Assembly: GCA_964501035.1 (NCBI GenBank)
Contig: CAZCRK010000009.1
Coordinates: forward strand, 1 to 39,407
Reading direction: 5' to 3'
Length of the DNA stretch: 39,407 bases
Part shown: in pieces, positions 2-36,770 of the stretch
How positions within the stretch are numbered: position 1 is the stretch's first letter
Layout of the letters: every line of letters begins with the position of its first letter
The notes under the pieces: model-generated
Told to the model about the DNA's origin: nothing
Seen by the model: only the letters and a program-made list of their open reading frames with translations
Database searches by the model: none
Made by a program: the position numbers and the translations under genes

Positions 2-3000
2 TGTTTCTATTTGGTCAACACCAAATGACGGCACGTAGAATTCACTTGCGTCGTTCTTCGCAACCAATACATCAGCTCCACCAAATATAGCATCGGTACT
101 CATATCATCTGAAACAACATTGAATGAAACCATATTCATTGTCATTGCATCTACATGAACATCTTGTGTGAATTCACTTGGTCCAAATGGATTAGTAAAT
201 GTTGCACAATCTGCAAATGCATAATATGCTTCACCAAATGGATCAGATAAAACATAGTTATCAAAACACATTTCAGTATCGTACTCACCTGCTTCTGCAG
301 TCATTGTTACTGTAGCCAATGCCCCTGAGCCAGCTGGAATTAAAGTACCAGAGAATGAGAATCCAAGTAATGTAAAGTTGCCATCATTTTCATTACCAGA
401 TAATGCCCAATCAGCTGGAACTCTTTCAGTTCCTTCAATACTAACAAATGTAAAGTTATCAGGAGTATCACCAATTTCAATTTGGAAACCTTGAATGTCA
501 GATGTATTATCAACATGAATATCAAATGAGGTATCACTTGTTTGAACCATGGATAAAATCACATCAGGTAAACCAATAGCAAATTCAGCAGGTTCACTTC
601 CCCAATAAATTGATTGACCTAAGTCATCTGAGAATGTTGTTCCTGCAACAGCATCTAGTACTGTTACACCATCTGCTGCATCTGCATTTACTTCATAAGT
701 AACCGTAAACAATGCACCATCACCTACGTCAATGAATGCTCCTGTCATGCTAAACCATAGTACAACCAATTCACCATTAATTTCACTAGTGGATAGCATT
801 CCATCAAGTTCACTTAATCGAGCTTCTTCCGTTACTTCAACATAAGTCAACGCTTCTGGATCTTCACCAATATGAATCTCGATACCATACACTGGGAATG
901 GATTATTTATTGAGAATGTAACATCGCCTGTACCACCTTGGTCGATAGCTTCACTTGGAGTATCAAAATATACTTCAATTTTATCCACATCTATTGCTAC
1001 AGAACCACAACCATTATCAATCATATACGCAACTCCAGTTGCATTTGATAATACTTCACCAGTAGTACAAAGTGAAACGTTTGCAGGTTCAGATGCCGCA
1101 GCAGAGAAAGTGAGATAGAATGTTTCACCATCACCAGCCTCAATTGCTGTACCTTGGAATGAGAATCCAAGTACGCGTGCAGACCCATCTTCTTGTTCTG
1201 CAACTGATAAACTCCAATCTGCTGGAACTCTGTCAGAACCAGTTACATCTAAAATACTCAAATACTCAGGAGTATCTGTTAAGTCAAACTGAACTCCATA
1301 AATTGCTTCAGGGTTAGATAAAGAAACAGCTACTGTGACTTCTTCACCTCCCATTACTTCAGCATCTGCAACAGAAATCAACACTGTTGACATTGGTGTC
1401 GCAGAGGCTTCATTTGAATTATTAGATTCTGTACCACCATCAAATACTGATGTTACCACATAGTAATATGTGTTACCATTTGATGCACTTGCATCTGCAT
1501 AGGAAGTTGTTTCAGCATCAGTTGAACCAATCAATGCATATCCCGAACCAGATGTTTCTGAACGATACATATTGTATCCAACAAGCGCTTCTCTAGTTTG
1601 AGTCGGTTCAGTTAATGTATTCAATAACTCTTTATGATGATTTGTTTCATCGTCATCATGTGCATTTTGTAAACCACCACATGCACCCCAAGGATCATTA
1701 AATGTAGCACAATCACCACAATCGTTACCCCATTCAGGACAACCATCTCCTTCAGTCCAGAAGACAATACCATATGTTCCATCATCGCAATAACCGTCAC
1801 CAAGCCATGCTAAGCAACTACCACCATCACAGTCTGTATCATTAAAACATAGACCTGCGCAATCAATATATTCTGCTGAACCGTCAGGACATGCAGGGAA
1901 TGTACCACCAGAAGTTTCAACTTCGTCCCATGCAAGGTCAACATTGTCATCACCTGCTACAGCAACTAAGTTTTCTGGTACTGGAGCTTCAAATGGTTCA
2001 GGCATTGCCCATGCTTCGTTTGAATATTCAGATTCTAAAACATCATCGAATACAGCCGTTACTACATAGAAATATTCAGTGTAGTTTTCTAAACCACCAT
2101 CATTATAAGATGTTGTGTTTCCATCTACAGAAGCTAGGAATTCATATCCAGTTCCGGTTACAAAAGATCTGTAAATATTATAACTTGTGACAGATTCACG
2201 ATTTGATGAACTGCTAGGAATAAACTCTTTATGAGCGTTTGTTTGGTAAATTGGTAATGTCATTTCTGATACACCATTTCCAGAAGAAGTAAACACTCCA
2301 TCACCTGGGCAAGCACAACCTGAGCAATCCCAATAGTAATTTGCCTCTAGAGTTGCACAATCAATACCATATTCATCCCATGCAGTATCACAGCATTCGC
2401 TTCCATAATCAGTGAAGTCAAACTCACAATCTTCACATTCAGCACTAGAAGCACAATCTTCAGGACATGACTCAGCAGTTTCATCACCATTACAAATACC
2501 ATCACCACATTCTGCTGGTCCACCTTGATTGTTTCCACATACTTCCATTGGATCATTTAATGCACCGCAATCACCACAATCATTACCATATTCAGGACAG
2601 GTTTCTCCAGCTTCCCAGAAAACTAATCCATATTCACCGTCATCACAAAATCCGTCACCTAACCAAGTGGTTTGACCTTCAACACAACCATCATAACCAG
2701 AACCGGCACAATCTGAGTTATTAAAACAAAGACCCACACAGTCCTCGTATTCTGCACTACCATCTGAACAAACAATGAACATATCACCTCCACCGCCGCC
2801 ACCGCCACCGGTAGTTGGAGCAGTCCATGATAAATCAATTTCTGCATCACCTGCTACAGCAGTTAAGTTTGTTGGAGGTGTTGGTTGGAATTCTTCTGGT
2901 GTAGCTGATGCTTCATTTGAATATACCGATTCAATTTCATCATCATACATTGCTGTAACTACATAGAAATATTCAGTGCCATTAGTTAGACCTAAATCAT

Positions 3001-6000
3001 CATACGATGTGGTTTCAGCATCTACCATATCAATAAGTTCATACCCACTACCAGATGTAAATGAACGATAAACATTATAACCAGTTAACTCATCTCGTTC
3101 CCTTACATCACTTGATGATGCATATAAACCTGCAAAATCACCAACCCATGGTTTAATTCGTGTACTAAACTCACCATTATAATTTAAAACACCATCACAT
3201 TGGTCTTCAGTACAATCACCACCGTCTAAATCGTAACAACATAAGTTTGCTCCATATTGTTGATCTTCACAATCTGGATAACCATCACCAACCCATGATG
3301 CTGGAGCACATTCACCACTTCCATCACAATCATCAAGTTGACCTATGTCTTCACAACTTCCTTCAAAGTTACAATCAGTTGTAGCAGTACCTGTTGAAGC
3401 ATTACCATCATCAAACGTAATTGTAAATGTTTCTGTTTCACCATTGCCAAATCCATAGAAGTAAAATCCATCAGTAAATCCGTATGTTGAAAGATCTTGT
3501 TGGCCAGCACTATAATCTAATGTCATTGCTGTACAACCACCTTCCCACTGGAACCAGAAGTAACCAGTTCCATCTGTGTAACAATCACCCACACTTGGAT
3601 CAGAACCACTAACTGTGAAAGAACTTGCACAAGCACCTTCACCACCGCCACCACCATTTGGTGCTGACCAGTTTAAATTAATATGTTCATCACCAGCTGT
3701 AGCTGTTAAGTTAGATGGTGGAGTTACTTCAAATGGTGCAGGTGTTGCAGCTGCTTCATTTGAATAATCTGATTCATACATATCATCAAACATAGCAGTA
3801 ACAACATAGTAATATGTATCACCATTTGTTAATCCTGTATCAAGATATTCTGTTGTATTTGCATCAACAACATCAATTAATACATACCCACTGCCTGAAG
3901 TTGCAGATCGATATACATTGTACATTGTCAATTCTTCACGAGTTTCAGTTGTGCTATATTGATTAAACACTTTTTCCACTGCTACATGTTCAATAGAGCT
4001 GGTCATATCTGAAATACCATTTCCAGAAGAAGTAAACCCTCCATCACCTGGGCAAGCACAACCTGAGCAATCCCAATAGTAATTTGCCTCTAGAGTTGCA
4101 CAATCAATACCATATTCATCCCATGCAGTATCACAGCATTCGCTTCCATAATCAGTGAAGTCAAACTCACAATCTTCACATTCAGCACTAGAAGCACAAT
4201 CTTCAGGACATGACTCAGCAGTTTCATCACCATTACAAATACCATCACCACATTCTGCTGGTCCACCTTGATTGTTTCCACATACTTCCATTGGATCATT
4301 TAATGCACCGCAATCACCACAATCATTACCATATTCAGGACAGGTTTCTCCAGCTTCCCAGAAAACTAATCCATATTCACCGTCATCACAAAATCCGTCA
4401 CCTAACCAAGTGGTTTGACCTTCAACACAACCATCATACCCAGAACCGGCACAATCTGCGTTATTAAAACAAAGACCCACACAGTCCTCGTATTCTGCAC
4501 TACCATCTGAGCAAACAATGAACATGTCACCTGTAGGAGCTTGAGATGGTTCATCCCATGTTAAGAATACTTCTTCATCACCTGCTGTAGCTACTAAGTT
4601 TTGAGGTGGGAGTACATCTTCTGGTAATTGATAGTCACAACATCCATCACATGGAATAGTTGCATCTTCATCATAGTTAACTGCAGTATCATCCATACAA
4701 CCAGTACATGATTCATCATCATTTGATGCATCATCGTCACATACACCACAGTTATCCGTTGTAGCAAATCCACCACATTCACCTGCACAATCCACTTCAG
4801 CTATACAATCACCCGCACAATCATGAAATTCATCAATAGGATACTCACATGAGTCATCATTTGTATTTGCAGTTTCATCATAGTTACAAGCGCTTTCATC
4901 AGTACAACCTAAAATAACATTACCAATGGTGTAATCATCACCAATATTAGTTTCTAATGAAACACCTAATGCATCACTGATAGTTTCTTCATCAATACTA
5001 AAAAATCCATCAGCACCTGTAAATGTTGCAGCAATATATGTAAGTGGAGCTGTTCCTACAGGTATTGTACCACCCGTAAATGAGAAACCAAGCACTAAAC
5101 CGTCAGCATTAGTTGACACACTAAAACCATTGTCAACTGCTGAACCACCTTGTGCACCGGTCACAGCAAAATCAGCAAAACTTGCATCCAAATCAAATTG
5201 GAATCCACCAACTTCTACATCATTAGATAAAGTAACTTCGAGAAGACCATCACTATAATCACTTATCCATAAATGTATTCCCTCCAATGGGCAATCTGTT
5301 GGGTCAGTTACACCACCATCACATGTACCACATACATCCACAATTGCAGTTCCGCCACATTCACCAGCACAATCCAATGTGTTTCCGTCACAATCACATG
5401 CACCTGCGGGGAATCCATCACCACCGCAAACACCACATTCATCTACTTCAGCTGTACCACCACATACACCATTACAGTCAACGTCGGCTATACAGTTTCC
5501 GTCACAATCAAAAAATTCTTCAGCATAATCGCAATCACCAGGATCTGTTGCATCTGGGTCATAGTTACATGCTGTTTCGTCCATACAACCTTCAATAACA
5601 ACAGCACCGTCATCATAGTGGAAATCTAGTGAATTTCCATCACCATCTGAAATCACCATATTTTCTATTCCAGTAGGTACACCTGCTAAATCAAGTATTA
5701 ATAAAGTACCACTTCCAGCTGGAATTACATCACCGGTCATTGAGAAACCAAGAACAAGGGTTGAGCTTGTAGAAACAGTAAATCCATTTGCTGCTGCATC
5801 TCCACCACTTGCACTATTAATTGTGGTACCCACTACATTAAACTGAAATCCGCCCATATCATAGTCACTGTTGTAACCAACATTATATGTGCCATCACCA
5901 TTGTCTTCATACCAAAGACTATTTGGTTCGTCACCAACAACGCCACCATCATCACATGGTTCGCCAGAGCCACCACATACACCACACTCATCAACAACGG

Positions 6001-6532
6001 CAGTTCCACCGCATTCACCAGCACAGTCTTCTACATTGCCGTCACAATCACATGCACCTGCATCCATGTATTCACATTCTGCTTCTGCACCAAAGTTACA
6101 GGCTGTTTCATCATCACAGGTAGCCACTGCACCATCATCATAATGGAAATCCAGAGCAACACCTGATGGGTCAGAAACTGTAATTTCTGAAATCCCTGTT
6201 GGGGTACCAGCTAAATCAACAACTACAAGTGTTCCAGAGCCTGTTGGTATTGTACCACCGGTCATTGAAAATCCTAGCACTAACGTAGATGATGTTGACA
6301 ACATAAACCCATTAGAAGTAGCATCTCCGCCACTTGCACTGTTAATTGTTGTTCCATCAACGATAAATTGGAATCCACCAATGTCATAATCACTGTTGTA
6401 TCCAACGTTATATGTTCCATCACCATTATCTTCAAACCATAAACTATTTGCTTCATCACCAACTTGGGCAAATAGAGAGGTTACAAGAATAAATGTAGAT
6501 AAAACCTTTATTATTGTTTTTATATTTAACAT
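2..6532 (-). CDS. Giant secreted acidic Cys-rich modular protein (>2177 aa, 3' end outside the window): signal peptide, 3 short cohesin-like domains with Cys-rich spacers, 4 FN3 domains with Cys-rich inserts, 3 cohesin-like domains
   Basis: Absent from the ORF track because no stop codon lies in the window. ATG at 6532-6530 is preceded by AAGGAG. Hand translation gives signal peptide MLNIKTIIKVLSTFILVTSLFA-Q, repeats GCMDETACNY and DCAGECGG, FN3 motifs PPQNLVATAG..LTW..YNVYRS..YYYVVTA, and cohesin-like SNPEAIYGVQFDL..VLGFSFQG. The frame at position 2 (..GVDQIET) matches the start frame. Confidence 0.92.
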   Translation of the reverse strand, partial: MLNIKTIIKVLSTFILVTSLFAQVGDEANSLWFEDNGDGTYNVGYNSDYDIGGFQFIVDGTTINSASGGDATSNGFMLSTSSTLVLGFSMTGGTIPTGSGTLVVVDLAGTPTGISEITVSDPSGVALDFHYDDGAVATCDDETACNFGAEAECEYMDAGACDCDGNVEDCAGECGGTAVVDECGVCGGSGEPCDDGGVVGDEPNSLWYEDNGDGTYNVGYNSDYDMGGFQFNVVGTTINSASGGDAAANGFTVSTSSTLVLGFSMTGDVIPAGSGTLLILDLAGVPTGIENMVISDGDGNSLDFHYDDGAVVIEGCMDETACNYDPDATDPGDCDYAEEFFDCDGNCIADVDCNGVCGGTAEVDECGVCGGDGFPAGACDCDGNTLDCAGECGGTAIVDVCGTCDGGVTDPTDCPLEGIHLWISDYSDGLLEVTLSNDVEVGGFQFDLDASFADFAVTGAQGGSAVDNGFSVSTNADGLVLGFSFTGGTIPVGTAPLTYIAATFTGADGFFSIDEETISDALGVSLETNIGDDYTIGNVILGCTDESACNYDETANTNDDSCEYPIDEFHDCAGDCIAEVDCAGECGGFATTDNCGVCDDDASNDDESCTGCMDDTAVNYDEDATIPCDGCCDYQLPEDVLPPQNLVATAGDEEVFLTWDEPSQAPTGDMFIVCSDGSAEYEDCVGLCFNNADCAGSGYDGCVEGQTTWLGDGFCDDGEYGLVFWEAGETCPEYGNDCGDCGALNDPMEVCGNNQGGPAECGDGICNGDETAESCPEDCASSAECEDCEFDFTDYGSECCDTAWDEYGIDCATLEANYYWDCSGCACPGDGGFTSSGNGISDMTSSIEHVAVEKVFNQYSTTETREELTMYNVYRSATSGSGYVLIDVVDANTTEYLDTGLTNGDTYYYVVTAMFDDMYESDYSNEAAATPAPFEVTPPSNLTATAGDEHINLNWSAPNGGGGGEGACASSFTVSGSDPSVGDCYTDGTGYFWFQWEGGCTAMTLDYSAGQQDLSTYGFTDGFYFYGFGNGETETFTITFDDGNASTGTATTDCNFEGSCEDIGQLDDCDGSGECAPASWVGDGYPDCEDQQYGANLCCYDLDGGDCTEDQCDGVLNYNGEFSTRIKPWVGDFAGLYASSSDVRERDELTGYNVYRSFTSGSGYELIDMVDAETTSYDDLGLTNGTEYFYVVTAMYDDEIESVYSNEASATPEEFQPTPPTNLTAVAGDAEIDLSWTAPTTGGGGGGGGDMFIVCSDGSAEYEDCVGLCFNNSDCAGSGYDGCVEGQTTWLGDGFCDDGEYGLVFWEAGETCPEYGNDCGDCGALNDPMEVCGNNQGGPAECGDGICNGDETAESCPEDCASSAECEDCEFDFTDYGSECCDTAWDEYGIDCATLEANYYWDCSGCACPGDGVFTSSGNGVSEMTLPIYQTNAHKEFIPSSSSNRESVTSYNIYRSFVTGTGYEFLASVDGNTTSYNDGGLENYTEYFYVVTAVFDDVLESEYSNEAWAMPEPFEAPVPENLVAVAGDDNVDLAWDEVETSGGTFPACPDGSAEYIDCAGLCFNDTDCDGGSCLAWLGDGYCDDGTYGIVFWTEGDGCPEWGNDCGDCATFNDPWGACGGLQNAHDDDETNHHKELLNTLTEPTQTREALVGYNMYRSETSGSGYALIGSTDAETTSYADASASNGNTYYYVVTSVFDGGTESNNSNEASATPMSTVLISVADAEVMGGEEVTVAVSLSNPEAIYGVQFDLTDTPEYLSILDVTGSDRVPADWSLSVAEQEDGSARVLGFSFQGTAIEAGDGETFYLTFSAAASEPANVSLCTTGEVLSNATGVAYMIDNGCGSVAIDVDKIEVYFDTPSEAIDQGGTGDVTFSINNPFPVYGIEIHIGEDPEALTYVEVTEEARLSELDGMLSTSEINGELVVLWFSMTGAFIDVGDGALFTVTYEVNADAADGVTVLDAVAGTTFSDDLGQSIYWGSEPAEFAIGLPDVILSMVQTSDTSFDIHVDNTSDIQGFQIEIGDTPDNFTFVSIEGTERVPADWALSGNENDGNFTLLGFSFSGTLIPAGSGALATVTMTAEAGEYDTEMCFDNYVLSDPFGEAYYAFADCATFTNPFGPSEFTQDVHVDAMTMNMVSFNVVSDDMSTDAIFGGADVLVAKNDASEFYVPSFGVDQIET
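2273..2789. repeat. Direct repeat copy 1 (~517 bp) inside the giant CDS
   Basis: Matches 4016-4532 at offset 1743 (581 codons). Five mismatches counted by eye; 2296-2695 is identical. The track shows identical shadow ORFs at 2347..2556 and 4090..4299. Confidence 0.97.
4016..4532. repeat. Direct repeat copy 2 (~517 bp) inside the giant CDS
   Basis: Near-identical to 2273-2789. Confidence 0.97.
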
Positions 6533-6600
6533 GTCTTCTCCTTTTAAGTGTCTTTTAAATAAAAAATCTTCTATCCATCAAAAATGACAGACTTTTCTGA

Positions 6601-6659
6601 GTGTAAAATTACACAATCATTTCTTTTTTTTTAGGTTTTTTTTGTGTCAGTTTGTTACA
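6601..6659 (-). promoter_or_regulatory. Putative promoter region of the giant secreted protein
   Basis: Minus-strand TGTG-TAATTT (-10-like, 6611-6606) lies within the inverted repeat GTGTAA-aa-TTACAC (6601-6614). Upstream are A9/A8 tracts and TGTAACA-aac-TGACACA. Confidence 0.4.
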
Positions 6660-6669
6660 GGGTACATTT

Positions 6670-7836
6670 TCAGATTGAATTTACTGCATTTTCAATATCT
6701 AATTCTAAATCTATAATATGTTCAATTCCTACAGATAACCTTACCAAACCATCCGTTACTCCGAGCTTTTGACGCATTTCAGCTGGAATCGATGCATGAG
6801 TCATACTGGCTGGATGGCAAACTAAACTTTCTACTCCACCCAAACTCTCTGCTAAGGTGAAAATATCTAATTTTTTAACAAACATTCTAGCTCTTTCTAG
6901 AGATCCGAGTTCTAATGAAATCATTCCTCCAAAACTTGGGTTACCGTGCGGATCTAATTGTTGTTGTTTGGCAAGCTCATGATGTGGATGGGAAACTAAC
7001 CCAGGATAAAAAACATTATCAAATTTTCCAGAATTTTCAAGAAATTCTGCTAATGTTTTTGCATTTTCATTATGTGCTTTCATTCGAACTGGCAAAGTCT
7101 TTAGTGAACGCTGGGTTAACCAACAATCAAATGGGCTAGGAACAGCCCCAACAGACATTTGAATAAACTGTAATTGCTCTAAAATGGATTCTTTATTGGT
7201 AATCACAATTCCACCAACCACATCGCTATGTCCATTCAAATATTTGGTTGTACTATGGATAATAACATCTGCACCTAACGATAATGGTCGTTGAAAATAT
7301 GGTGACATGAAGGTATTATCCACAACAGAAATTAAGTTTTTTTCTTTCGCTAATTGAGAAATAGCACTGATATCGGATAACGACATCATTGGATTTGTAG
7401 GTGTCTCATAAAACACCATTTTGGTATTGGATGTAATTGCATCTGATATATTGTTTGTATCCGATGTATCAACCCAAGATGCTTCAAGACCAAATCGTTG
7501 AAATATTTTATCCATAATGCGAAATGTCCCACCGTACACGTTGTCGGAAAATATGACATGATCTCCCTGTGATAGCATAGTTAAAATAGCCGAAGTCGCT
7601 GCCATGCCTGATCCAAATGAAGTTGCACCAATACCTCCCTCTAAAGATGCAATATTTTCCTCAAGATTTCGTCTAGTTGGGTTATCTGCTCGTGAATAAT
7701 CAAACTCATATTCAGCGAAGTTTTCTTGTTTAAAGGTAGATGTTAAATAAATGGGTAGTGAAACTGCTCCATATAATTTTTCAGGTTTTTGACCAACGTG
7801 AATGGCGTTCGTTTCGAATTTCTTACTTTTTTTCAC
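6670..7836 (-). CDS. PLP-dependent trans-sulfuration enzyme (cystathionine gamma-lyase/gamma-synthase, MetB/MccB family)
   Basis: YSRADNPT, FGSGMAA, ETPTNP, DNTF, HSTTKYLNGHSD (PLP lysine), AESLGGVESL, RLSVGIE. GTG start overlaps the secA stop. Confidence 0.95.
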   Translation of the reverse strand: MKKSKKFETNAIHVGQKPEKLYGAVSLPIYLTSTFKQENFAEYEFDYSRADNPTRRNLEENIASLEGGIGATSFGSGMAATSAILTMLSQGDHVIFSDNVYGGTFRIMDKIFQRFGLEASWVDTSDTNNISDAITSNTKMVFYETPTNPMMSLSDISAISQLAKEKNLISVVDNTFMSPYFQRPLSLGADVIIHSTTKYLNGHSDVVGGIVITNKESILEQLQFIQMSVGAVPSPFDCWLTQRSLKTLPVRMKAHNENAKTLAEFLENSGKFDNVFYPGLVSHPHHELAKQQQLDPHGNPSFGGMISLELGSLERARMFVKKLDIFTLAESLGGVESLVCHPASMTHASIPAEMRQKLGVTDGLVRLSVGIEHIIDLELDIENAVNSI

Positions 7837-10800: not shown

Positions 10801-10856
10801 TCTTTTTCGGACTTGTTCCCAAATAATTTAGTTACAATTTTAGTTAATATCGCCAT
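7836..10856 (-). CDS. secA: Preprotein translocase ATPase SecA
   Basis: [61 protein letters not shown]-terminal [19 protein letters not shown]. Confidence 0.99.
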
Positions 10857-11307
10857 TCAACTCCTCTAATAAAATCTTTCCTTTCATATAATCATTGTAC
10901 ACAGAATCTAAGATTCCATTAACAAAACTGCTACTGTCTTTTGTACTAAAATCTTTTGCAATTTCGACCCCTTCTGCAATAGATACTTTGGGTGGAATTT
11001 CATTCACTAATAGCATTTCTGTTAAGGATAATCGTAGAATTAATTTATCCATTAATGTAATACGATTTATATCCCAATTTTTAGAACGATTCACAATATA
11101 GCTATCCATCTTTTCACTATTTTTTAATGTTAATCGAGCTAAAATACTCGCATATTTAATAACATTAGGATTATCATTCTCCTCGAAGAGAAAAGACAAT
11201 GTCGTATTCATATCTGAACCATTTAGTTCTTGAGCATAGACTGCCTGTAGGGCAGCAACACGACACCGCCTTTTCTCTTTACGAGTCATTTTACTGTTTT
11301 CAGACAT
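10840..11307 (-). CDS. nusB: Transcription antitermination factor NusB
   Basis: Arg-rich [41 protein letters not shown]. Confidence 0.96.
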
Positions 11308-12400
11308 TTCTTATTTTAAATGATTTTTTATACGGCAGATAAAAGGATTTAAGATCACCAATTTTTCGTATTCTATCTTCTGCTTGCTTATCAGAAGCCA
11401 TATTTGTTGAAATACCATCTTCTTTTGAGCGTTTGAAGATTTCCATTAGCATATCATAAATACCTTCTGCTTGACTAAATGCCCTCTCTTGATTATATCC
11501 TTCCAATTCATTAGAAACATTAATCAATCCACCTGCATTTATGGCATAATCTGGTGCATACAAAATATTATTCTTCATTAAGTCTGTACCATGTTTGTCT
11601 GGGTCTTTGAGAACATTATTTGCACCACCTGCTACTACAGTGCATTTTAATTGTGGAATTGTCGAATCATTCACAGTTGCACCTAACGCACATGGAGCAT
11701 AAACGTCAACATCCAAACCATAAATTTCATCCAAGCCAACCGCATTTGCTCCAAATCTTTCAACTGCAGTATCTATCAATCCTTGATCAATATCTGTAAC
11801 ATACAATTGAGCACCTTCTTTGTGTAAATACTCAGCAAGATACATTCCAACATGGCCAAGGCCTTGAATAGACACTTTTAAGCCATCGAGTTCATTACAA
11901 TCTAACCTTTCTTTTACCGCAGCTTTTAATCCCATAAAAACACCAAATGAAGTTACAGGAGATGGATCACCGCTACCGCCAAGTGATTTGGAAATACCGG
12001 TTACATAATTGGTTTCCATTCGGACATGTTCCATGTCTTTCAAACTTGTACCCACATCTTCAGCTGTAATATATCGACCACCTAAGCCTTCAACAAACCG
12101 GCCAAATGAACGAAATAAATTTTCTGATTTATCCGTTTTTGAATTACCAATGATGACAGCTTTACCACCACCTAGATTTAATCCAGCAATTGCTGCTTTA
12201 TACGTCATCCCTTTTGAGAGTCGTAGTACATCCACTAATGCTTCTTCTTCTGATGCATAGTTCCACATTCTGCAACCACCCAAAGCGGGTCCAAGTACAG
12301 TATTATGAATTGCAACAATTCCTTTTAACCCGGAATGTGGATCACTAAAAAAAGTAATCTGTTCATGACCACGTGAATATGTTTCTTCAAATATTTTCAT
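11300..12400 (-). CDS. ldh: Leucine dehydrogenase (Glu/Leu/Phe/Val dehydrogenase family)
   Basis: LGPALGGCR, LSKGMTYK, GGGKAVI, ITAEDVGT, QGLGHVG, PCALG, GGANN, APDYAINAGG. Confidence 0.93.
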   Translation of the reverse strand: MKIFEETYSRGHEQITFFSDPHSGLKGIVAIHNTVLGPALGGCRMWNYASEEEALVDVLRLSKGMTYKAAIAGLNLGGGKAVIIGNSKTDKSENLFRSFGRFVEGLGGRYITAEDVGTSLKDMEHVRMETNYVTGISKSLGGSGDPSPVTSFGVFMGLKAAVKERLDCNELDGLKVSIQGLGHVGMYLAEYLHKEGAQLYVTDIDQGLIDTAVERFGANAVGLDEIYGLDVDVYAPCALGATVNDSTIPQLKCTVVAGGANNVLKDPDKHGTDLMKNNILYAPDYAINAGGLINVSNELEGYNQERAFSQAEGIYDMLMEIFKRSKEDGISTNMASDKQAEDRIRKIGDLKSFYLPYKKSFKIRNV

Positions 12401-12418
12401 TTTGAATCCTTTCTTAAT

Positions 12419-13558
12419 CTATTTAAGTAATGTGCGAGCAATTACCATGCGTTGAATTTCAGAGGTTCCTTCATAAATTTGTGTAATTTTCGCATCTCTC
12501 ATAAGTCTTTCGACCCCTGTTTCACGAATGAAACCATTTCCACCATGGATTTGTACGCATTGTGTAGAAGCAAACATTGATGCTTCAGATGCATATACTT
12601 TTGCCATGGATGCCATATGCCCATACTTCATTTTTTTATCTTTCATCCATGCAGCTTTATGAATCAACATTCTGGCTGATTCTATTTGCATAGCCATATC
12701 TGCTAATTTAAACTGCACACCTTGATTTTCGGCAATGGGCTTGCCAAACTGAACTCGGTCTTTTGAATAACTTATGGCTGCTTCCAATGATGCTTGAGCA
12801 ATTCCCAATGCTTGTGCTGCAATGCCAATTCTTCCACCATCTAACGTTGCCAAAGCTATTCTAAAACCATCGCCTTCTTCTCCCAATCTGTTTTCAACGG
12901 GTACTTTTACATTGTCAAAATACAATTCAGTTGTATCGGATGCACGGATTCCTAATTTATTCTCAGGTTTTCCAACACTATATCCTTCCCAGCCTTTTTC
13001 AACCAAGAAGCATGAAATCCCCTTATATCCCACCCCTTGTTTTGTTACTGCAAAGAGCATTACATAATCGCAACTTTTCCCGTTTGTTACCCAATTTTTT
13101 GTTCCATTCACTATATAGTGATCACCATCTCGCTTGGCGATTGTAATCATATTTGATGCATCCGAACCTGATTGTGGTTCAGACAAAGAAAATGCGCCGA
13201 GTTTTTCACCCGATGCCAATCGTGTGAGATATTTTTCCTTAATTGCATCACTTCCGTAACTTTGAACGAGATAACATACCAATGAATTGTTTACGGACAT
13301 CACCACTGATGCAGACGCATCTACTTTTGAAATTTCTTCCATTGCTAACGTATAGGAAATTGCATCCATTCCACCCCCATTCCATTTGGGGTCAACCATC
13401 ATACCCATAAAACCTAATTCAGCCATTTTTTCAATTCCTTCTTTTGGCCAAATTTTCTTTTCATCCCGTTCAATTACACCGGGAAGCAATTCATCAACTG
13501 CAAATTCACGTGCAGTTTGTTGTATCATACGTTGTTCTTCAGATAATTCAAAATTCAT
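12419..13558 (-). CDS. Short/branched-chain acyl-CoA dehydrogenase
   Basis: FSLSEPQSGSDA, NGTKNWVTNG, KLGIRAS, LDGGRIGIAAQ, QIHGGNG, RDAKITQIYEGTSEIQ. Confidence 0.96.
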   Translation of the reverse strand: MNFELSEEQRMIQQTAREFAVDELLPGVIERDEKKIWPKEGIEKMAELGFMGMMVDPKWNGGGMDAISYTLAMEEISKVDASASVVMSVNNSLVCYLVQSYGSDAIKEKYLTRLASGEKLGAFSLSEPQSGSDASNMITIAKRDGDHYIVNGTKNWVTNGKSCDYVMLFAVTKQGVGYKGISCFLVEKGWEGYSVGKPENKLGIRASDTTELYFDNVKVPVENRLGEEGDGFRIALATLDGGRIGIAAQALGIAQASLEAAISYSKDRVQFGKPIAENQGVQFKLADMAMQIESARMLIHKAAWMKDKKMKYGHMASMAKVYASEASMFASTQCVQIHGGNGFIRETGVERLMRDAKITQIYEGTSEIQRMVIARTLLK

Positions 13559-13601
13559 TTATTTTTCCTCACTTTTAAAACTTTCAACTCTTCACTTTTT
13601 C

Positions 13602-14447
13602 CTAATTGTAGTAGTAAAACCCTTTGCCTGTTTTTCGTCCTAATGTGCCAGCTGAAACCATTCGTTTTAGGAGTGGACAAGGCCGATACTTACTATCACC
13701 TAAATCTTTATGAAGTACTTCCATAATTGCCAAACATACATCCAATCCAATTAAATCTGCCAAAGTCAAAGGACCCATAGGATGTGCCATTCCCAGTTTC
13801 ATTATTTGATCAATGGCTTCAGCTTCAGCAACACCCTCCATTAAACAGTATACTGCTTCATTTATCATTGGCATTAAAATTCTGTTTGCAACAAATCCAG
13901 GGTAATCATTGCATTCGACTGGAATTTTACCCATTTGTTTCGACAATTGCACCACAGTTTGTGTTGTTGCATCATCGGTTAAATGACCCCGAATAATCTC
14001 AATCAATTTCATCATAGGAACTGGATTCATAAAATGCATTCCAATAACTTTTTCAGGTCGATTGGTTTTAGATGCAATAGATGTTATAGAAATTGATGAT
14101 GTATTGGTTGCCAAAATTGTATCTTCTGAGCAAATTTTATCTAGTTGTGTGAAAATGGATGCCTTAATATCTGGGTTTTCAGATGCAGCTTCAACCACAA
14201 TATTGCTATCTGATAGTACATTCATATCCGTTGTTATTGTAATTTTATCTAGTGCAGACATTTTATCAGCATTGGATATTTTTTCTTTTTGAACTTGCCT
14301 ATCCAAATTCTTAGTAATGGTTGCAATCCCTTTTTCTAAGAATTCTTCTTTAATATCAACCAGTACAACATCAAACCCACTCAGTGCTGATACATGGGCA
14401 ATACCATTTCCCATTGTTCCAGCACCAATAATACCAATTTTAGTCAT
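13602..14447 (-). CDS. hbd: 3-hydroxybutyryl-CoA dehydrogenase
   Basis: [55 protein letters not shown]. Confidence 0.95.
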
Positions 14448-15622
14448 TATATTTTCTCCACAATTAACGCAGCCGCTTCACCGCCACCAATACAAAGAGT
14501 AGCAAGCCCACGTGATTTGTTTTTTACATTCATCGCATTTAACAACGTAACCAAAACTCGAGCACCCGATGCGCCAATTGGATGACCCAGTGAAACTGCA
14601 CCACCAAAAACATTCACTTTATCGTGAGAAATATTATGTTCACGCATGGCAGCAAGAGTAACATTCGAAAATGCCTCATTGATTTCAAACAGATCAATCT
14701 CATCGATTGTCAAATTTGCTTTGGATAATACTTTTGTCATTGATTTACCCGGTGCAGTTGTAAAATAGATGGGCTCCTGTGCAGCTGAAGCTTGAGACAC
14801 AATGCGTGCAACGGGTGTAATCCCTAGTTCTTTTGCTTTCGTTTCTGACATTAAAACAAGGACAGCAGCTCCATCATTTATACTGCTTGCATTTGCAGCA
14901 GTTATTGTACCCTCTTTGTCAAATGCTGGTCTTAGCTTAGCCAATTTATCAGGTCGGCCTTTTCCGGGTTCTTCATCGGTATCCACTATGATTGGTTCTC
15001 CTCGTCGTTGTGGAACCTCAACTGGTGTAATTTCATCTTTGAATGAACCATTTTCAATTGCTTCAAGTGACCGCCTATACGATTCTTGAGCAAATGCATC
15101 TTGTTCTTCTCGAGAATAATTATCTTCTTTTGCCAAATGTTCAGCACAATTCCCCATGTGTACATTGTCGTAAGGATCCCAAAGACCATCATGAATCATT
15201 CCATCAATGACTTGTTTATGTCCCATTCTGTGTCCACTACGTGCTTGCGGGAGATAATAGGGAACTTGACTCATGTTTTCCATGCCACCTGCAACAATTA
15301 TATCAGCATCACCTGCTTTTATCGCTTGGTCAGCTAGCATGACTGCTTTAAGTCCAGAACCACATACTTTATTTATGGTTAAACATTCAACAGATTTAGG
15401 GAGTTCTGCATAAATGGAAGCTTGTCTTGCTGGAGCTTGCCCAATACCTGCTGTTAATACATTTCCCATAATCACTTCATCCACCATTGAAGGGTCAATG
15501 CCAGCTTTAGCAATGACAGATTTTATTGCAATGGCTCCCAATTTTGGAGCAGAAATTGAACTTAATGAACCATTAAAAGAACCAATAGGGGTTCGAGAAA
15601 AAGAAACAATTACAGAATTCAT
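14447..15622 (-). CDS. atoB: Acetyl-CoA C-acetyltransferase (thiolase)
   Basis: [37 protein letters not shown]. Confidence 0.94.
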
Positions 15623-16575
15623 TTTTTATCCTTCCCATTCTTTGCATACGCTTTAATTATATTTTTAACTAACTTATGTCGGACAACATCGTTTTCATCA
15701 AACTGGACAAATGCAATACCATCGACATTTTTTAAAATATGAGTTGCATCAATCAAGCCAGACTTATCAGAAGGAGGTAAATCAATTTGTGTAATATCTC
15801 CCGTAATAATTGCTTTAGACGTTACCCCTAAACGTGTTAAAAACATTTTCATTTGCATGCGAGTTGCATTTTGAGCTTCATCTAATATCATAAATGCATT
15901 ATGGAGAGTTCGTCCACGCATATATGCAAGGGGTGCAATTTCAATAGTTCTGCTATCTATATATAACTTGAGTTTATCACGGGGAATCATATTATTTAAG
16001 GCATCATACAGTGGGGTTAGATATGGATCCACTTTTTCTTTTAAATCTCCGGGGAGAAATCCCAAGCGCTCACCAGCCTCAACAGCAGGGCGAGTGATCA
16101 CAATTTTATCTACTTCACGATTTTTTAATGAGGCAACTGCTGATGCGACAGCTTGATAGGTTTTTCCTGTTCCTGCAGGTCCAATTGCAAAAACAATATC
16201 ATTTTGCAATACCGCATTTAAATAGTTTACTTGCCCTGGAGTTTTTGCATACACAGCACCTTGATGTGTATATAATACCACAGGGTCATCCTCACCATTA
16301 TCTTGGGCTCTTGCAGATGTGTGATCACTGGCTAAATTGAGGAGGGATGTTACATCTTCTTTGTCCACAAATCCTTTTTGATTTATGGTAAATAACATAT
16401 CCTGAATAACAGATTCAATAACTTGAATATCAGATTCTTCACCATCTAAACGAACTTCGGTTCCGCGAACCACAATACTCGTTTTAAAATTGGACTCCAG
16501 TACTTTAATATTTTGATCTTTCGCCCCACTAAAGGCAAGTGGATCAACTCCAGCAATGTCAATAATCTTTTTCAA
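15619..16575 (-). CDS. phoH: PhoH-family ATPase (YbeZ-like) with N-terminal KH-like region
   Basis: GPAGTGKTY, RPAVEAGERLGFLPGD, PLAYMRGRT, DEAQN, GDITQIDL, DVVRH. TTG start. Confidence 0.95.
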   Translation of the reverse strand: MKKIIDIAGVDPLAFSGAKDQNIKVLESNFKTSIVVRGTEVRLDGEESDIQVIESVIQDMLFTINQKGFVDKEDVTSLLNLASDHTSARAQDNGEDDPVVLYTHQGAVYAKTPGQVNYLNAVLQNDIVFAIGPAGTGKTYQAVASAVASLKNREVDKIVITRPAVEAGERLGFLPGDLKEKVDPYLTPLYDALNNMIPRDKLKLYIDSRTIEIAPLAYMRGRTLHNAFMILDEAQNATRMQMKMFLTRLGVTSKAIITGDITQIDLPPSDKSGLIDATHILKNVDGIAFVQFDENDVVRHKLVKNIIKAYAKNGKDKK

Positions 16576-16603
16576 AAAAACTCTCTAATTCAATAAATTA
16601 AAT

Positions 16604-16637
16604 AAAAAAAGCCCGTTTCCCAATGGGAAATGAGCTT
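16604..16637 (-). terminator. Intrinsic terminator ~30 nt upstream of phoH
   Basis: Minus strand AAGCTCATTTCCC-ATT-GGGAAACGGGCTT followed by a T run. Confidence 0.8.
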
Positions 16638-16678
16638 ACATTTATAACCTGTAAATTAAACCTTTCATAAAGCATGGT

Positions 16679-16706
16679 AATTTACACATCTTTATCCTAT
16701 TTTCAA
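16679..16706 (-). promoter_or_regulatory. Putative sigma70-type promoter
   Basis: Minus strand TTGAAA-16 nt-TAAATT, with TGTG just before the -10 box. Confidence 0.5.
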
Positions 16707-16758
16707 TTGAGTTTTCTTGAATGGTTATATTGAAGGAAATAGGGGTGAATGGTTGTAA

Positions 16759-17172
16759 TTAAACAACATAGCTAAACTTAACAACTCGTTTTATATCTGG
16801 GTGTAAACTATTGCACACTGGGCAACACGTAGCTTGAAACTCTAACAACTCTTTCTCTTGAGTTGTAAACGACTTATTAAATATAAATTCAAGATGAATT
16901 TCGGTTATTCTTCGAGGATTAGTCCCCATAATTTTAGTTACCTTGACTTTGGTTCCATTAATATTGATTCCATTTTTTTCAGCTTCGATTCCCATTATAG
17001 TCAAAATACAACTACCCAATGCTGAAGCAACTGTATCCGTTGGAGAAAATGCCTCCCCTTTTCCATTATTATCTGTAGGTGCATCGGTTATAATTGCGTC
17101 ACCAGATTGCAAATGGATTGATGAAACCCTAAGGTTTCCTTCATATTTCAATTCAATTTGATGTTCTTTCAT
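16759..17172 (-). CDS. OsmC/Ohr-family protein
   Basis: TDAPTDNNGKGEAFSPTD, ALGSC, CPVCNSL. ATG overlaps the upstream stop (TAATG). Confidence 0.93.
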   Translation of the reverse strand: MKEHQIELKYEGNLRVSSIHLQSGDAIITDAPTDNNGKGEAFSPTDTVASALGSCILTIMGIEAEKNGININGTKVKVTKIMGTNPRRITEIHLEFIFNKSFTTQEKELLEFQATCCPVCNSLHPDIKRVVKFSYVV

Positions 17173-19646
17173 TATCTGTCTAATATGATGTTAACTGTCA
17201 TAATAATATCTAAAACATCTATCATTCCATCTTCATTAAAATCTGCTGATTGCATTTGATTCTCTGTTGGAACCCACCCGTTTATGACAAAATTTACCAT
17301 AATAATAACATCTTGAATATTTACATTTTCATCATCATTTACATCACCCATGATTATCTCGTATCCATCATTTAAGACAAAATCCCAAATTCCTCTACCA
17401 TAGGTTGCAAATCGAGCAGTATTTAACTCAGGTATAAAGTCAACAGTCCAGTAGGTTTGATCCGGTGCTGAAATTCCAGCTATAGATATCCATTCTTCTT
17501 CATTTTGAGAATACACATACGGTCCAACCTCTGTAGCAGCGAATAGAAGAATATCATCTGGTGTTCCGTACAGTTGATATACCAACGTATTGGGTAAACC
17601 ATTATCCATCGCAGTAAATGTTTGACCATGATTATATGAAACATACACCGGTGCATTGGAATATCCACTTCCACCAATGGTCACTTTGCCAAGTTCTTGA
17701 GCAGATGCCCAAATGGTAGAGCCATAAAAATATTGAGGAGTTGGTCCTGTAAAATTTGAGGTAACATTCCAGTTTTCACCATCATTCGAACTGTAATAAA
17801 ATTTACCATTTTCTGTCAAAACATAACGGTAAGAAGGATTGATAGGAGAGTATTCCATGGCAGAAACCGTTCCTGAAAAATTATAATTCTGCTCATTATA
17901 TATTATTTGATTCCCTTGAACCGAAAGCTCAATCAAGTGGTTTCCACCACTCACACCACCACCACCCAATATAGCTTTTTGTGCAGAATAGGGGTGTTCC
18001 ATTAAAGGAGCAAGCCACATGTGACCATTTCCTGGAAAATCTAATGAAATACTCCAATCAGAATGCTCAATATTTGAATAATAAATCGTAAAACCGGGAT
18101 AGTTTGTCCAAATACTGTGCCCATCATCATTGGATACTAGATGTCCATAATCACCACTTATAATTTGCTCAAAATCTCGAATTCCATTATTATCAACCAG
18201 ACTACGTTGTAAGCCTTGGTCTTGACTACCTGCAAAAATCGCATAGGGTTCGTGACGTTGAGTATATGTGGAATAATATTGACTTACCCCCAAGCCATTG
18301 AGCGAAAGATTATGTACAGAATTCAAATAATCATCTGAAGTATATAATCCTCCATCCGTAGAAATAAGGGCAATTTCATTATACTCATTATCAAGGAAAA
18401 ACCGAATCTCTGGAATATCAGCATGGAGTTTGCCTTCCATGTCATTGTAATAGTCATACCAGTTATTCACTAAGCTCCAATTGTTCGCACCATTTGTGCT
18501 ACCAAACAATTCCATTCCACCAATAAAAATTCTATCTCTTTCAAGGTTCGATGCATTGAAACTGTTTATGGTAAACCACCAATCTGAAGGACTGTTTCCT
18601 CTGTCAGACCATGTGTTTCCTCCGTTGGTTGAACGAAAAATTCTATCCCCAACATGCGCGTAAAAAAATGCTCCACTTACACCAGTCCCACCCGTCAACA
18701 AAACAGAATCTGAATAATTACCCGGAAGATCAGCAATCCAGTCAATATTATCATTTTCAATTTTGTAAAATGAGTTATCATTCAAAACATAAATAGCATC
18801 ATAAGTATAGCGAGGGGTGAAAATATCAAAATGTGATATACTTTCATTTGGAAGTCCTTGACTTGCATTTAGTGATAACACATGCTCAAAACTTTCCCCC
18901 AAATTAATAGATCGGTATATTGCTCGATTGCTTCCCTCATTAACAAGGGCATAAATATGATTGGTCTCAGCTTGCATCACCATTCTTCGCATATTTCCAT
19001 AAGATAGAAACTCCAATCCCGTTGCCTCATGCAAGGTTAAACAATCATCGTCCGAATAATAAAATCCTTTATCTGAACCAATCAATAAACGATTTAAATT
19101 TCCATTTTCAATAATTCGTAAAAATGTAATTCCTTTAATTTGCATATAGTCATTTAATGATTGCCAATTTTCACCCTCTAACGAACCTTTCCAAATATTA
19201 CCTCCGGAAGATGCGCAGTAAATTAGATTATTGTCAAAATCTATATCTGCAGTTCGAATTCTACCTGCTAAATTGTTGCTTCCTCGTTCAATCCATGTTC
19301 CTTCGATTTCACGTTCACGAATAATTTCATAATTATCTGTTAATTCAGAATGTAACCCATTCTGCAAAATGGATTGTCGTTTCACGCGTGTTTTCTTTGT
19401 GGTATTTTCTCGTGTAATCGCATCCATTTGTTTCCAATCATCATCTGGATGTGATCGGTACATGTTTTCCATCCATGCCTTACGATGTTTTTTGAGTTCT
19501 TTGCGTTTTTCTTTACGGATTACAAATTCAGTTGGGGTAGGTTGAGTTATCTGTTTCGTTTCTTTGAGGAGTTCAAACACAATACCTCCGACCAAAACAA
19601 CACACCCAAATAATACCCATTTTTTGTTAATTTTTTGAATATTCAT
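17172..19646 (-). CDS. Exported BNR/Asp-box (VPS10/sortilin-like) beta-propeller protein with C-terminal dockerin
   Basis: N-terminal hydrophobic segment; Asp-boxes SINLGESF, STNGGNTW, SNDGENW, SYNHGQTF; HADI, TDGGLY, GSQDQG, ATYGRGIW; duplicated GDVNDDENVNIQD / ADFNEDGMIDVLD at 17172-17351. Confidence 0.88.
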   Translation of the reverse strand: MNIQKINKKWVLFGCVVLVGGIVFELLKETKQITQPTPTEFVIRKEKRKELKKHRKAWMENMYRSHPDDDWKQMDAITRENTTKKTRVKRQSILQNGLHSELTDNYEIIREREIEGTWIERGSNNLAGRIRTADIDFDNNLIYCASSGGNIWKGSLEGENWQSLNDYMQIKGITFLRIIENGNLNRLLIGSDKGFYYSDDDCLTLHEATGLEFLSYGNMRRMVMQAETNHIYALVNEGSNRAIYRSINLGESFEHVLSLNASQGLPNESISHFDIFTPRYTYDAIYVLNDNSFYKIENDNIDWIADLPGNYSDSVLLTGGTGVSGAFFYAHVGDRIFRSTNGGNTWSDRGNSPSDWWFTINSFNASNLERDRIFIGGMELFGSTNGANNWSLVNNWYDYYNDMEGKLHADIPEIRFFLDNEYNEIALISTDGGLYTSDDYLNSVHNLSLNGLGVSQYYSTYTQRHEPYAIFAGSQDQGLQRSLVDNNGIRDFEQIISGDYGHLVSNDDGHSIWTNYPGFTIYYSNIEHSDWSISLDFPGNGHMWLAPLMEHPYSAQKAILGGGGVSGGNHLIELSVQGNQIIYNEQNYNFSGTVSAMEYSPINPSYRYVLTENGKFYYSSNDGENWNVTSNFTGPTPQYFYGSTIWASAQELGKVTIGGSGYSNAPVYVSYNHGQTFTAMDNGLPNTLVYQLYGTPDDILLFAATEVGPYVYSQNEEEWISIAGISAPDQTYWTVDFIPELNTARFATYGRGIWDFVLNDGYEIIMGDVNDDENVNIQDVIIMVNFVINGWVPTENQMQSADFNEDGMIDVLDIIMTVNIILDR

Positions 19647-22495: not shown

Positions 22496-22496
22496 T

Positions 22497-27714: not shown

Positions 27715-27715
27715 T

Positions 27716-36663: not shown

Positions 36664-36770
36664 AATACACCTCAATAATAAATAGTTAATTGCTATCGAT
36701 ACTGAATATAAGGACTATACTGCGTAAAATATAATAAAATTCGTTTCTTGTTGCAAACTGTTACGAAAAC

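Follow-up and report, generated by a model that had tools for sequence, protein, structure and literature searches.

A putative multi-cohesin surface scaffold within a genome-wide, protease-rich dockerin inventory of an uncultured SAR406 bacterium

The window analysed here is the whole 39,407-nt contig CAZCRK010000009.1 (C9) of a 1.87-Mb draft genome (167 contigs, 95.7% complete), and its main subject is a giant open reading frame (ORF) that carries six cohesin modules and runs off one end of the contig. We propose that this ORF probably encodes the main scaffold, anchored by the type IX secretion system (T9SS), of a genome-wide, non-cellulolytic and protease-rich surface assembly in a SAR406 bacterium, with putative binding between its cohesins and the dockerins of secreted proteins. 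SAR406, or Marinimicrobia, is an uncultured lineage of seawater bacteria. A preliminary description of the same DNA had read the giant protein as a scaffoldin-like hub; the domain identities, the host and the non-cellulolytic cargo of that reading stood, its local pairing of the hub with a dockerin-tailed propeller protein in the same window did not.

The host was placed by the SecA protein of the window, which is 73% identical to its nearest match from a metagenome-assembled genome (MAG) and 66-67% identical to those from 'Candidatus Neomarinimicrobiota' MAGs, a lineage also named Marinimicrobia, SAR406 or Marine Group A in the literature (PMC11652737). Judged by these matches, the host is an uncultured Marinimicrobia/SAR406 bacterium, a diderm of the Fibrobacterota-Chlorobiota-Bacteroidota (FCB) type. 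The FCB-type diderm proposed earlier agrees with this placement, with the presence of the SprA translocon (480 bits summed) and with 37 matches to Por_Secre_tail in the genome, 34 of which are T9SS sorting domains over the cut-off.

Results

Architecture of the giant ORF

The giant ORF lies at the left end of the window, and a second scaffold-like ORF lies at the right end. Their features are the following.

2..6532, minus strand: giant scaffold ORF, 2177 amino acids, open-ended, with no stop before the contig end
6464..6532, minus strand: signal-like sequence, amino acids 1-23, with a hydrophobic core ending in LFAQ, read from the translation
6113..6466, minus strand: cohesin module N1, short type, no Pfam match, predicted fold closest to cohesins
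5588..5941, minus strand: cohesin module N2, short type, 75% identical to N1
4901..5296, minus strand: cohesin module N3, short type, no Pfam match
5933-6127, 5288-5599 and 4613-4915, minus strand: Cys-rich linker repeats between the N-terminal cohesins, no family match
1388..4627, minus strand: four FN3-like units with Cys-rich inserts, fn3 matches below the cut-off
983..1405, minus strand: cohesin module C1, long type, Pfam Cohesin 33.2 bits
563..997, minus strand: cohesin module C2, long type, Pfam Cohesin 36.9 bits
179..580, minus strand: cohesin module C3, long type, no Pfam match, top matches of the predicted fold all cohesins
36820..39405, minus strand: second scaffold-like ORF (rightmost ORF), N-terminus cut by the contig end, with Cys-rich repeats and repeated unknown domains
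39103-39405, minus strand: cohesin-like module of the rightmost ORF, aligning with the six modules of the giant ORF
36832-37059, minus strand: T9SS type A sorting domain of the rightmost ORF, TIGR04183 47.5 bits

The giant ORF thus holds six cohesins and no dockerin. Neither its Cys-rich linkers nor its C-terminal 73 amino acids matched a Pfam family at E ≤ 1, and no family of carbohydrate-binding modules (CBM) was matched by Pfam when the ORF was scanned whole and in 14 pieces. Likewise, the Pfam scans of the giant ORF, the propeller protein and the rightmost ORF revealed no CBM3 and no cellulase family, as had been noted before for this stretch. For an FN3-like unit with its Cys-rich insert, an atlas look-up returned as best match a cluster without a name (0.93), followed by fn3 clusters below 0.9.

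The DNA of the window was found in seawater and brine metagenome runs of several studies; no RNA dataset was listed among those containing it. Contigs from the runs of two other studies reproduce positions 26-2325 and 26-2200, covering all three long cohesins, and differ from the window by 14 and 25 letters, respectively. These independent contigs stop near the window start, where a short and deeper contig takes over (depth 26.2 versus 11.5), which is consistent with a contig break caused by a repeat. The Cys-rich inserts of two FN3-like units are 99% identical in DNA (2259-2558 and 4002-4301), and since the independent contigs break at these repeats, the copy number of the FN3-like units is not secured.

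Cohesin identity of the modules

Against the Pfam Cohesin model (PF00963, gathering cut-off 24.1 bits), the whole giant protein scored 56.2 bits. The cut-off was passed by C1 and C2, both of which were confirmed in the genome scan; C3, N1, N2 and N3, scanned as the pieces 179-580, 6119-6463, 5591-5941 and 4907-5299, respectively, gave no Pfam match at E ≤ 1. The six modules can be aligned with the N-terminus of the rightmost ORF into a single family that shares the motifs G-F-Q-F and V-L-G-F-S..G..I..G, and a comparison by hhalign of a profile of 19 short-type modules with one of 12 long-type modules, the latter set including the Pfam-positive ones, gave a probability of 98.8% (E 6.4e-17, 101 columns). 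Pfam Cohesin was matched at E ≤ 0.01 by 10 of 48 family members from the own genome and five relatives, and no other family recurred among them. When the family profile was compared to the sequences in the PDB, all six matches were cohesin chains, the best being 5n5p (E 3.7e-4). The sequence identity of the modules to solved cohesins is only 10-19%.

The predicted structures point in the same direction. The AlphaFold2 model of C3, with a predicted local distance difference test (pLDDT) value of 94.7, produced 73 Foldseek matches at E ≤ 1e-3, the top ones of which were all cohesins (query TM-score, TMq, up to 0.79; E ~1e-7). For the model of N1 (pLDDT 92.9), CBM2 modules were mixed in among the Foldseek matches. 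An exhaustive structural alignment of this model to 48,161 representative chains placed cohesins in all of the top 14 positions with Z scores of 8.9-10.7 and root-mean-square deviations of 2.5-2.8 Å over 102-106 of the 118 residues for the top cohesins; the single best match was 2xdh, a non-cellulosomal cohesin of A. fulgidus (Z 10.7), and CBM2 reached Z 6.5. A CBM-like reading of the short modules, for which the CBM2 matches in Foldseek had spoken, was set aside because cohesins scored about 3-4 Z units higher.

By sequence and predicted fold, all six modules are accordingly classed as cohesins and not as generic Ig-like sandwiches. This bears out the three long C-terminal cohesins of the preliminary description, of which C1 and C2 pass Pfam and C3 has cohesins as its best model matches, its three shorter N-terminal variants, which join the cohesin family by profile comparison and, for N1, by fold, and the further domain that it had seen in the rightmost gene. 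Generic Ig-like beta-sandwiches, the outcome that it had named as counting against a cohesin reading, are not what the predicted folds of N1 and C3 resemble most.

The dockerin-tailed propeller protein

17172..19646, minus strand: Asp-box/BNR (Sortilin-Vps10-like) propeller protein, 824 amino acids, with C-terminal dockerin
17193..17348, minus strand: type I dockerin with two Ca-loop repeats, amino acids 767-817, Dockerin_1 31.3 bits

The tail of this protein exceeds the cut-off of Dockerin_1 (PF00404, 22.9 bits), contains two 12-residue D-x-N-x-D Ca-loop motifs, as seen in its translation and in an alignment of 58 dockerins, and matches the C. thermocellum dockerin chains 2mte and 1daq among PDB sequences (E 0.0016). 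The remainder scored 35.4 bits with Sortilin-Vps10 (cut-off 33) and shows Asp-box motifs in the translation; with the NCBIfam 'glycosylhydrolase' model it scored 46.9 bits, far under the cut-off of 175. On these sequence criteria, the tail is a canonical two-loop type I dockerin and the body is assigned to the propellers by its motifs, so that both the two-repeat dockerin and the beta-propeller that had been proposed for this gene are retained. At the N-terminus of the protein (19560-19646, minus strand), a basic stretch precedes a long hydrophobic segment with a Cys residue (..W-V-L-F-G-C-V-V-L-V-G-G-I-V-F..), which may act as a signal that is cleaved, as a lipoprotein signal or as a membrane anchor that stays uncleaved.

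In the preliminary description, scaffold and propeller had been presented as a local pair. Ten housekeeping genes separate the two genes, however, for which reason we rejected the reading as a local operon; the propeller is one of 64 dockerin frames in the genome (see below). The two proteins are members of a genome-wide system and not of a local one. Since the propeller is one among 64, no particular cohesin can be assigned as its partner, and we regard it as one candidate cargo and not as a dedicated partner of the giant scaffold.

Genome-wide inventory of dockerins and cohesins

A census of both modules over the genome, which had been suggested as a check, counted dockerins in 64 frames and found 31 or more cohesin-like modules. 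With Dockerin_1, 67 matches were obtained at E ≤ 0.01, of which 63 are over the cut-off, and the dockerins align as canonical symmetric two-repeat modules with D-x-N-x-D-G loops. At most 11 residues follow the dockerin match in 47 of the 64 frames, and 47 frames end in the dockerin without a sorting domain. A Met followed by a hydrophobic stretch stands at the start of 50 of the 64 frames, as counted by a heuristic of our own that is not a signal-peptide predictor.

The cohesin-like modules were counted at 25 bits or more with a hidden Markov model (HMM) built from the seven modules of the window and are distributed over 16 frames; in the same genome, Pfam Cohesin finds only four places. Most of the modules are of the short cohesin subtype that Pfam misses, and standard annotation would consequently undercount systems of this kind. 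Six frames carry several modules, namely 6 (the giant ORF), 4, 4, 4, 2 and 2. Half of the 16 frames, among them every one of the six with several modules, are cut on the 3' side by the end of a contig (contigs C87, C130, C55, C19, C21, C43 and C126, and the window start), and evidently repeats break the assembly at scaffold genes. In this assembly such genes consistently lack their ends, and annotation would under-represent them.

The cargo was classified by Pfam scans of the 64 dockerin frames at E ≤ 1e-4, except for the propeller of the window, for which E ≤ 0.01 was used. Peptidase families were found in 17 frames: C25 in six, S8 in four, M14 in two, and M6, M1, C10, S9 and trypsin-like peptidases in one each. 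Other enzyme families occur in 14 frames, with arylsulfotransferases in four; peptidyl-arginine deiminase, endonuclease I, an Exo_endo_phos nuclease/phosphatase, a purple-acid-type phosphatase, a PETase-like esterase, a PNGase F-like C-domain, CotH, redoxin and a Cu-monooxygenase-like domain are found in one frame each. Binding or repeat modules on dockerin frames include FG-GAP, PKD, LRR, LTD, Kunitz and thyroglobulin type 1. None of the 64 frames matched a glycoside hydrolase family at E ≤ 1e-4. The system is not a cellulosome sensu stricto, as there is no dockerin-borne cellulase or hemicellulase and no CBM3 on the giant scaffold, and the earlier expectation that the cargo would differ from that of a cellulosome holds for this genome.

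In 10 of the 64 dockerin frames, a T9SS sorting domain follows the dockerin. In nine of these, the intervening 85-140 amino acids share the motif N-V-A-G-I-Q-V-E-G ... I-Y-N-x-N-G and resemble a minimal cohesin (hhalign 85.6%, E 5.6e-6, 76 columns), although only the copy on C32 reaches 26.7 bits with the family HMM. The tail would then consist of three parts, i.e. dockerin, mini-cohesin and sorting domain. The stretches are located as follows.

L088:3211-3570, L089:13405-13791, L120:2801-3112, L121:8158-8421 and L122:226-516: mini-cohesin-like stretches
L107:2468-2887, L110:3604-3978, L114:13627-13917 and L098:1609-1920: further mini-cohesin-like stretches

Three additional loci of the inventory deserve description. 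On contig C52, two neighbouring frames (L117:1-1191 and L117:1977-3608) each have an N-terminal cohesin-like module and a C-terminal dockerin, similar to adaptor scaffoldins; one of them also has LRR repeats, and the first is partly hidden by a stretch of N. A cluster on C2:35211-49238 (L089:1-14028) encodes three dockerin-bearing proteins, namely a peptidase of family C10, one with FG-GAP repeats and a peptidase of family C25, the last also with a sorting domain. The four frames with arylsulfotransferase (ASST) domains, on C43, C49 and C73 (L114:10239-13017, L115 and L123:2226-3692), are an unexpected cargo for a degradative complex; a dockerin is listed at Pfam E ≤ 1e-4 for only one of them (L123), and the others rely on the genome scan at E ≤ 0.01.

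Secretion route and anchoring

Because the 3' end of the giant gene is lost at the contig edge, its anchoring by T9SS is inferred from relatives. In three genomes of the same family and order (G015, G003 and G009), we found colinear giant proteins with 9-10 cohesin-like modules. The relative lies directly downstream of a metB-like gene in G015 and G003, this gene being 70-71% identical to the one in the window, and judged by sequence and position the proteins of G015 and G003 are positional orthologues of the giant ORF; for G009 and a further relative in G028, orthology is deduced from colinear similarity only. Amino acids 1700-2177 of the giant ORF are 48% identical to the G028 protein over 481 amino acids, and the latter continues for about 340 residues. 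The relatives with intact ends terminate in T9SS type A domains by TIGR04183 (33.8 bits for G009, a complete frame of 3164 amino acids, and 33.0 bits for G028; cut-off 23 bits), whereas the Pfam sorting-domain model (PF18962, cut-off 27) scores the same ends below its cut-off, at 20.9 and 24.8 bits. The missing ~340 amino acids of the giant ORF would, by comparison with these proteins, include a T9SS sorting domain. The rightmost ORF, with a cohesin-like module, repeats and then a sorting domain, shows the same design within the own genome. When the last 366 amino acids of the G028 relative were compared to the own genome, 33 frames matched via the shared sorting domain; two contig-edge frames (C135 and C81) matched further upstream, and none could be assigned as the missing end of the giant ORF.

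With regard to other export components, a search for GldM gave no match in the genome and is uninformative, as control genomes were silent too. The genome encodes two secretins and three ATPases of the T2SSE family. The secretins and the main ATPase (L135, L136 and L137, contigs C105, C90 and C71) resemble PilQ/PilB slightly more than GspD/GspE by score, and no score reaches a cut-off; one secretin adjoins PilM, and the ATPase adjoins a GspF/PilC-like protein.

Co-variation across the phylum

The cohesin-like family was found in all of 31 genomes searched, i.e. close relatives and the own genome, with 2-48 matches each. A search of contigs with the three long cohesins as a single protein query gave 68 pattern matches, none of which was confirmed. 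Across 81 evenly sampled genomes of the phylum, each at least 80% complete, 49 contain dockerins and 40 contain the cohesin-like family: both are present in 37 genomes, dockerins only in 12, the cohesin-like family only in three and neither in 29. The counts of the two modules are correlated with a Spearman rho of 0.85 over the 81 genomes, 0.90 over 20 family means and 0.82 without five expanded genomes, in all cases ignoring kinship, so that the statistics are overstated, although the trend is a consistent one. Counts of 55 or more dockerins, which are lower bounds since at most 69 candidates per genome were scored, occur only in three families of the window's own order.

Co-fold of a cohesin with the dockerin of the window

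The co-fold proposed earlier for each cohesin with the dockerin of the propeller was run for N1, one of the six. This single pair scored 0.33, compared to 0.00 for the best of three controls, the three runs agreed in 100% of the contacts, and the pLDDT of the partner was at least 73. The mark that this score passes is reached by 116 of 157 solved complexes and by 2 of 215 mismatched pairs; at scores of 0.60 or lower, only 18 of the 157 solved complexes reach it, together with both of the passing mismatches. These benchmark counts hold only roughly here, as our own alignments were used, made for each partner separately. Since similar cohesin-dockerin complexes have already been solved, the pass may reflect likeness to them.

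Discussion

Proposed mode of action

According to the reading that we favour, the scaffold would be exported by Sec, as its N-terminal signal-like sequence suggests, cross the outer membrane via T9SS and be fixed at the surface by a C-terminal sorting domain of the kind seen in the full-length relatives. Each of its six cohesins, three short and three long, would then capture the C-terminal dockerin of a secreted protein in a Ca2+-dependent manner. The cargo would consist mostly of peptidases (C25 gingipain-like, S8, M14, M6, M1, C10, S9 and trypsin-like) and, in addition, of nucleases, phosphatases, arylsulfotransferases, peptidyl-arginine deiminase and binding modules. The expected outcome is a cell-bound array of enzymes degrading proteins and other polymers, which would keep the products near a small, streamlined cell.

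Several observations weigh against this proposal. Only two of the six modules pass Pfam Cohesin, neither of them of the short type, and the short-type models reached TMq values of only 0.47-0.62 in Foldseek. The sole co-fold result is a weak pass that moves the odds little, and cohesin-dockerin binding is putative. There is no operon link between scaffold and propeller, and 12 of the 81 genomes have dockerins without the cohesin-like family. As to export, the PorU-like and PorV-like proteins score below their cut-offs (308.8 bits versus 420 and 70.9 versus 250, respectively), the proposal gives the 47 dockerin-terminal proteins without a sorting domain no route across the outer membrane, and, with the C-terminus of the giant ORF missing and all six multi-cohesin frames cut at the 3' side, no sorting domain is seen on any of these frames in this genome.

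Alternative explanations

It is possible that the modules do not bind dockerins at all and that the giant protein acts as a fibrillar adhesin or as a spacer, with beta-sandwiches that are structural or bind glycans or particles, the dockerins attaching to something else such as a surface polysaccharide or other Ca2+-dependent ligands. The absent Pfam matches of four modules, the occurrence of CBM2 among the top Foldseek matches of the short type at similar E-values, the FN3-like and Cys-rich modules typical of adhesins, the weak co-fold pass and the 12 genomes with dockerins only would all fit such a protein. We nonetheless consider it unlikely, since in the exhaustive comparison cohesins are clearly above CBM2, the short type is homologous to Pfam-positive cohesins, the counts of modules and dockerins co-vary across the phylum, and the two frames on C52 combine cohesin and dockerin in the manner of adaptor scaffoldins. 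A related proposal would keep the binding and change its role: the modules might chiefly link surface proteins to each other, so that T9SS proteins with cohesins or dockerins form a cross-linked coat and not a scaffold that recruits enzymes. Sorting domains on 10 of the 64 dockerin frames, the resemblance to a minimal cohesin in nine of these and the two frames with both modules speak for it, whereas the majority of the dockerin frames (47 of 64) encode secreted enzymes with a free end and no sorting domain, and the giant ORF has six cohesins and no dockerin. Such a coat could exist alongside the recruitment of enzymes, as is the case for the adaptor scaffoldins of cellulosomes, but as the main role of the modules it is quite improbable in our view.

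The pairing could also take place in the periplasm and serve export, with dockerin proteins riding through T9SS bound to cohesin proteins with sorting domains, and display being a by-product. This would accommodate the 47 frames ending in a dockerin without a sorting domain, the proteins with a single cohesin and a sorting domain on C14, on C29 and in the rightmost ORF of the window, and the lack of a clear type II secretion system (T2SS), the secretins and the ATPase being PilQ/PilB-like and one secretin lying beside PilM. No observation bears directly on the place of assembly, however; the secretins and the ATPase score nearly as high for GspD/GspE as for PilQ/PilB, and the genome also has a GspF-like protein, which makes a T2SS-like route possible, and a scaffold loaded with six cargoes of about 50-170 kDa, as estimated from frame lengths, seems to us an unlikely translocation substrate. 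We therefore judge this explanation to be very unlikely. A bolder version, to which we concede only a slim chance, is that the C-terminal address tag of the secretome is, in the SAR406 order of the host, largely the dockerin in place of the T9SS sorting domain, and that dozens of peptidases, nucleases and phosphatases without a recognisable signal for outer-membrane export dock in the periplasm onto cohesin proteins with sorting domains and exit as passengers of T9SS. If this were true, cohesin-dockerin pairing would be a mechanism of export and display and not only of assembly.

Comparison with known systems

Compared to the clostridial cellulosome (PDB 1ohz, 2vn5, 4dh2 and 6kgc), the SAR406 system shares the jelly-roll cohesin, the two-repeat C-terminal dockerin and the tandem cohesins on a non-catalytic scaffold; it differs in the absence of cellulases and CBM3, in the diderm host and in the inferred T9SS anchor. 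Cellulosomes are anchored by S-layer homology (SLH) modules or by sortase. The non-cellulosomal cohesins of A. fulgidus (2xdh) and of C. perfringens NagJ/GH84C (2jh2, 2w1n and 2o4e) are likewise found outside cellulose degradation, but as single or few modules per genome, whereas the SAR406 modules form a genome-scale system. Non-cellulosomal cohesin and dockerin modules were reportedly catalogued in a survey by Peer et al. in 2009.

Closest in concept is the cellulosome-like complex of 'Ca. Stygibacter' (Cloacimonadota), proposed from genomes only by Williams et al. in 2021 (PMC8542988). Its scaffoldin has tandem cohesins and a C-terminal surface-attachment domain, and the cargo consists of enzymes with signal peptides and C-terminal dockerins, including S8 and C25 peptidases. 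Both systems thus combine an FCB-type diderm, S8/C25 dockerin peptidases and a proposed degradation of non-cellulosic polymers, and both are known from genes only. The SAR406 system differs in belonging to another phylum, in a scaffold in which no CBM2 or CBM3 was found, in the lack of glycoside hydrolases on any of its 64 dockerin frames compared to GH18 and GH57 in Stygibacter, in the much greater size of its inventory, which comprises 64 frames with dockerins and no fewer than 31 cohesin-like modules within 1.87 Mb, and in the predominance of the short cohesin subtype missed by Pfam.

The 'planctosome' of freshwater Nemodlikiaceae (Planctomycetes), a genome-based hypothesis on polypeptide degradation by Andrei et al. 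from 2019 (PMC6461901), shares with the SAR406 system a non-canonical cohesin-dockerin machinery, M14 carboxypeptidase cargo and lamin-tail-domain proteins. In the planctosome model, the anchor and the adaptor bear one cohesin each and tethering is by a lamin-tail domain, whereas the scaffolds of the genome studied here have 2-6 cohesins each, or 9-10 in relatives, and a T9SS sorting domain as their probable anchor. The idea is already published for Cloacimonadota and Planctomycetes, and the SAR406 case is the same design in another phylum and at larger scale. Our literature search, the scope of which did not extend to subscription journals and supplements, found no paper that links dockerins with Marinimicrobia, SAR406 or Marinisomatota.

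If the proposed assembly is real, about sixty scaffold-held hydrolases, mostly proteases, would account for the ability of a streamlined cell to break down proteins and other polymers while retaining the products, and the cellulosome principle would extend to protein turnover in the ocean.

Other features of the window

The ten genes between the giant ORF and the propeller gene include a metB-like gene, SecA, NusB, Leu/Glu dehydrogenase, acyl-CoA dehydrogenase, 3-hydroxyacyl-CoA dehydrogenase, thiolase, PhoH and OsmC, among others; the acyl-CoA dehydrogenase, the 3-hydroxyacyl-CoA dehydrogenase and the thiolase are three enzymes of fatty-acid oxidation. An Rfam scan of the window gave no match at gathering scores. 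Near the rightmost ORF lies one further secreted protein.

32230..36675, minus strand: lamin-tail surface protein, 1481 amino acids, with a T9SS type A sorting domain at 32242-32469 and neither cohesin nor dockerin

This protein belongs to the same secretome, and we do not claim it as a member of the assembly. A block of genes on the plus strand (21830-28975), encoding a DUF4159 protein, a DUF4175 protein of 1113 amino acids, a TPR protein and a 419-amino-acid protein without a family match, is unrelated to the cohesin-dockerin system.

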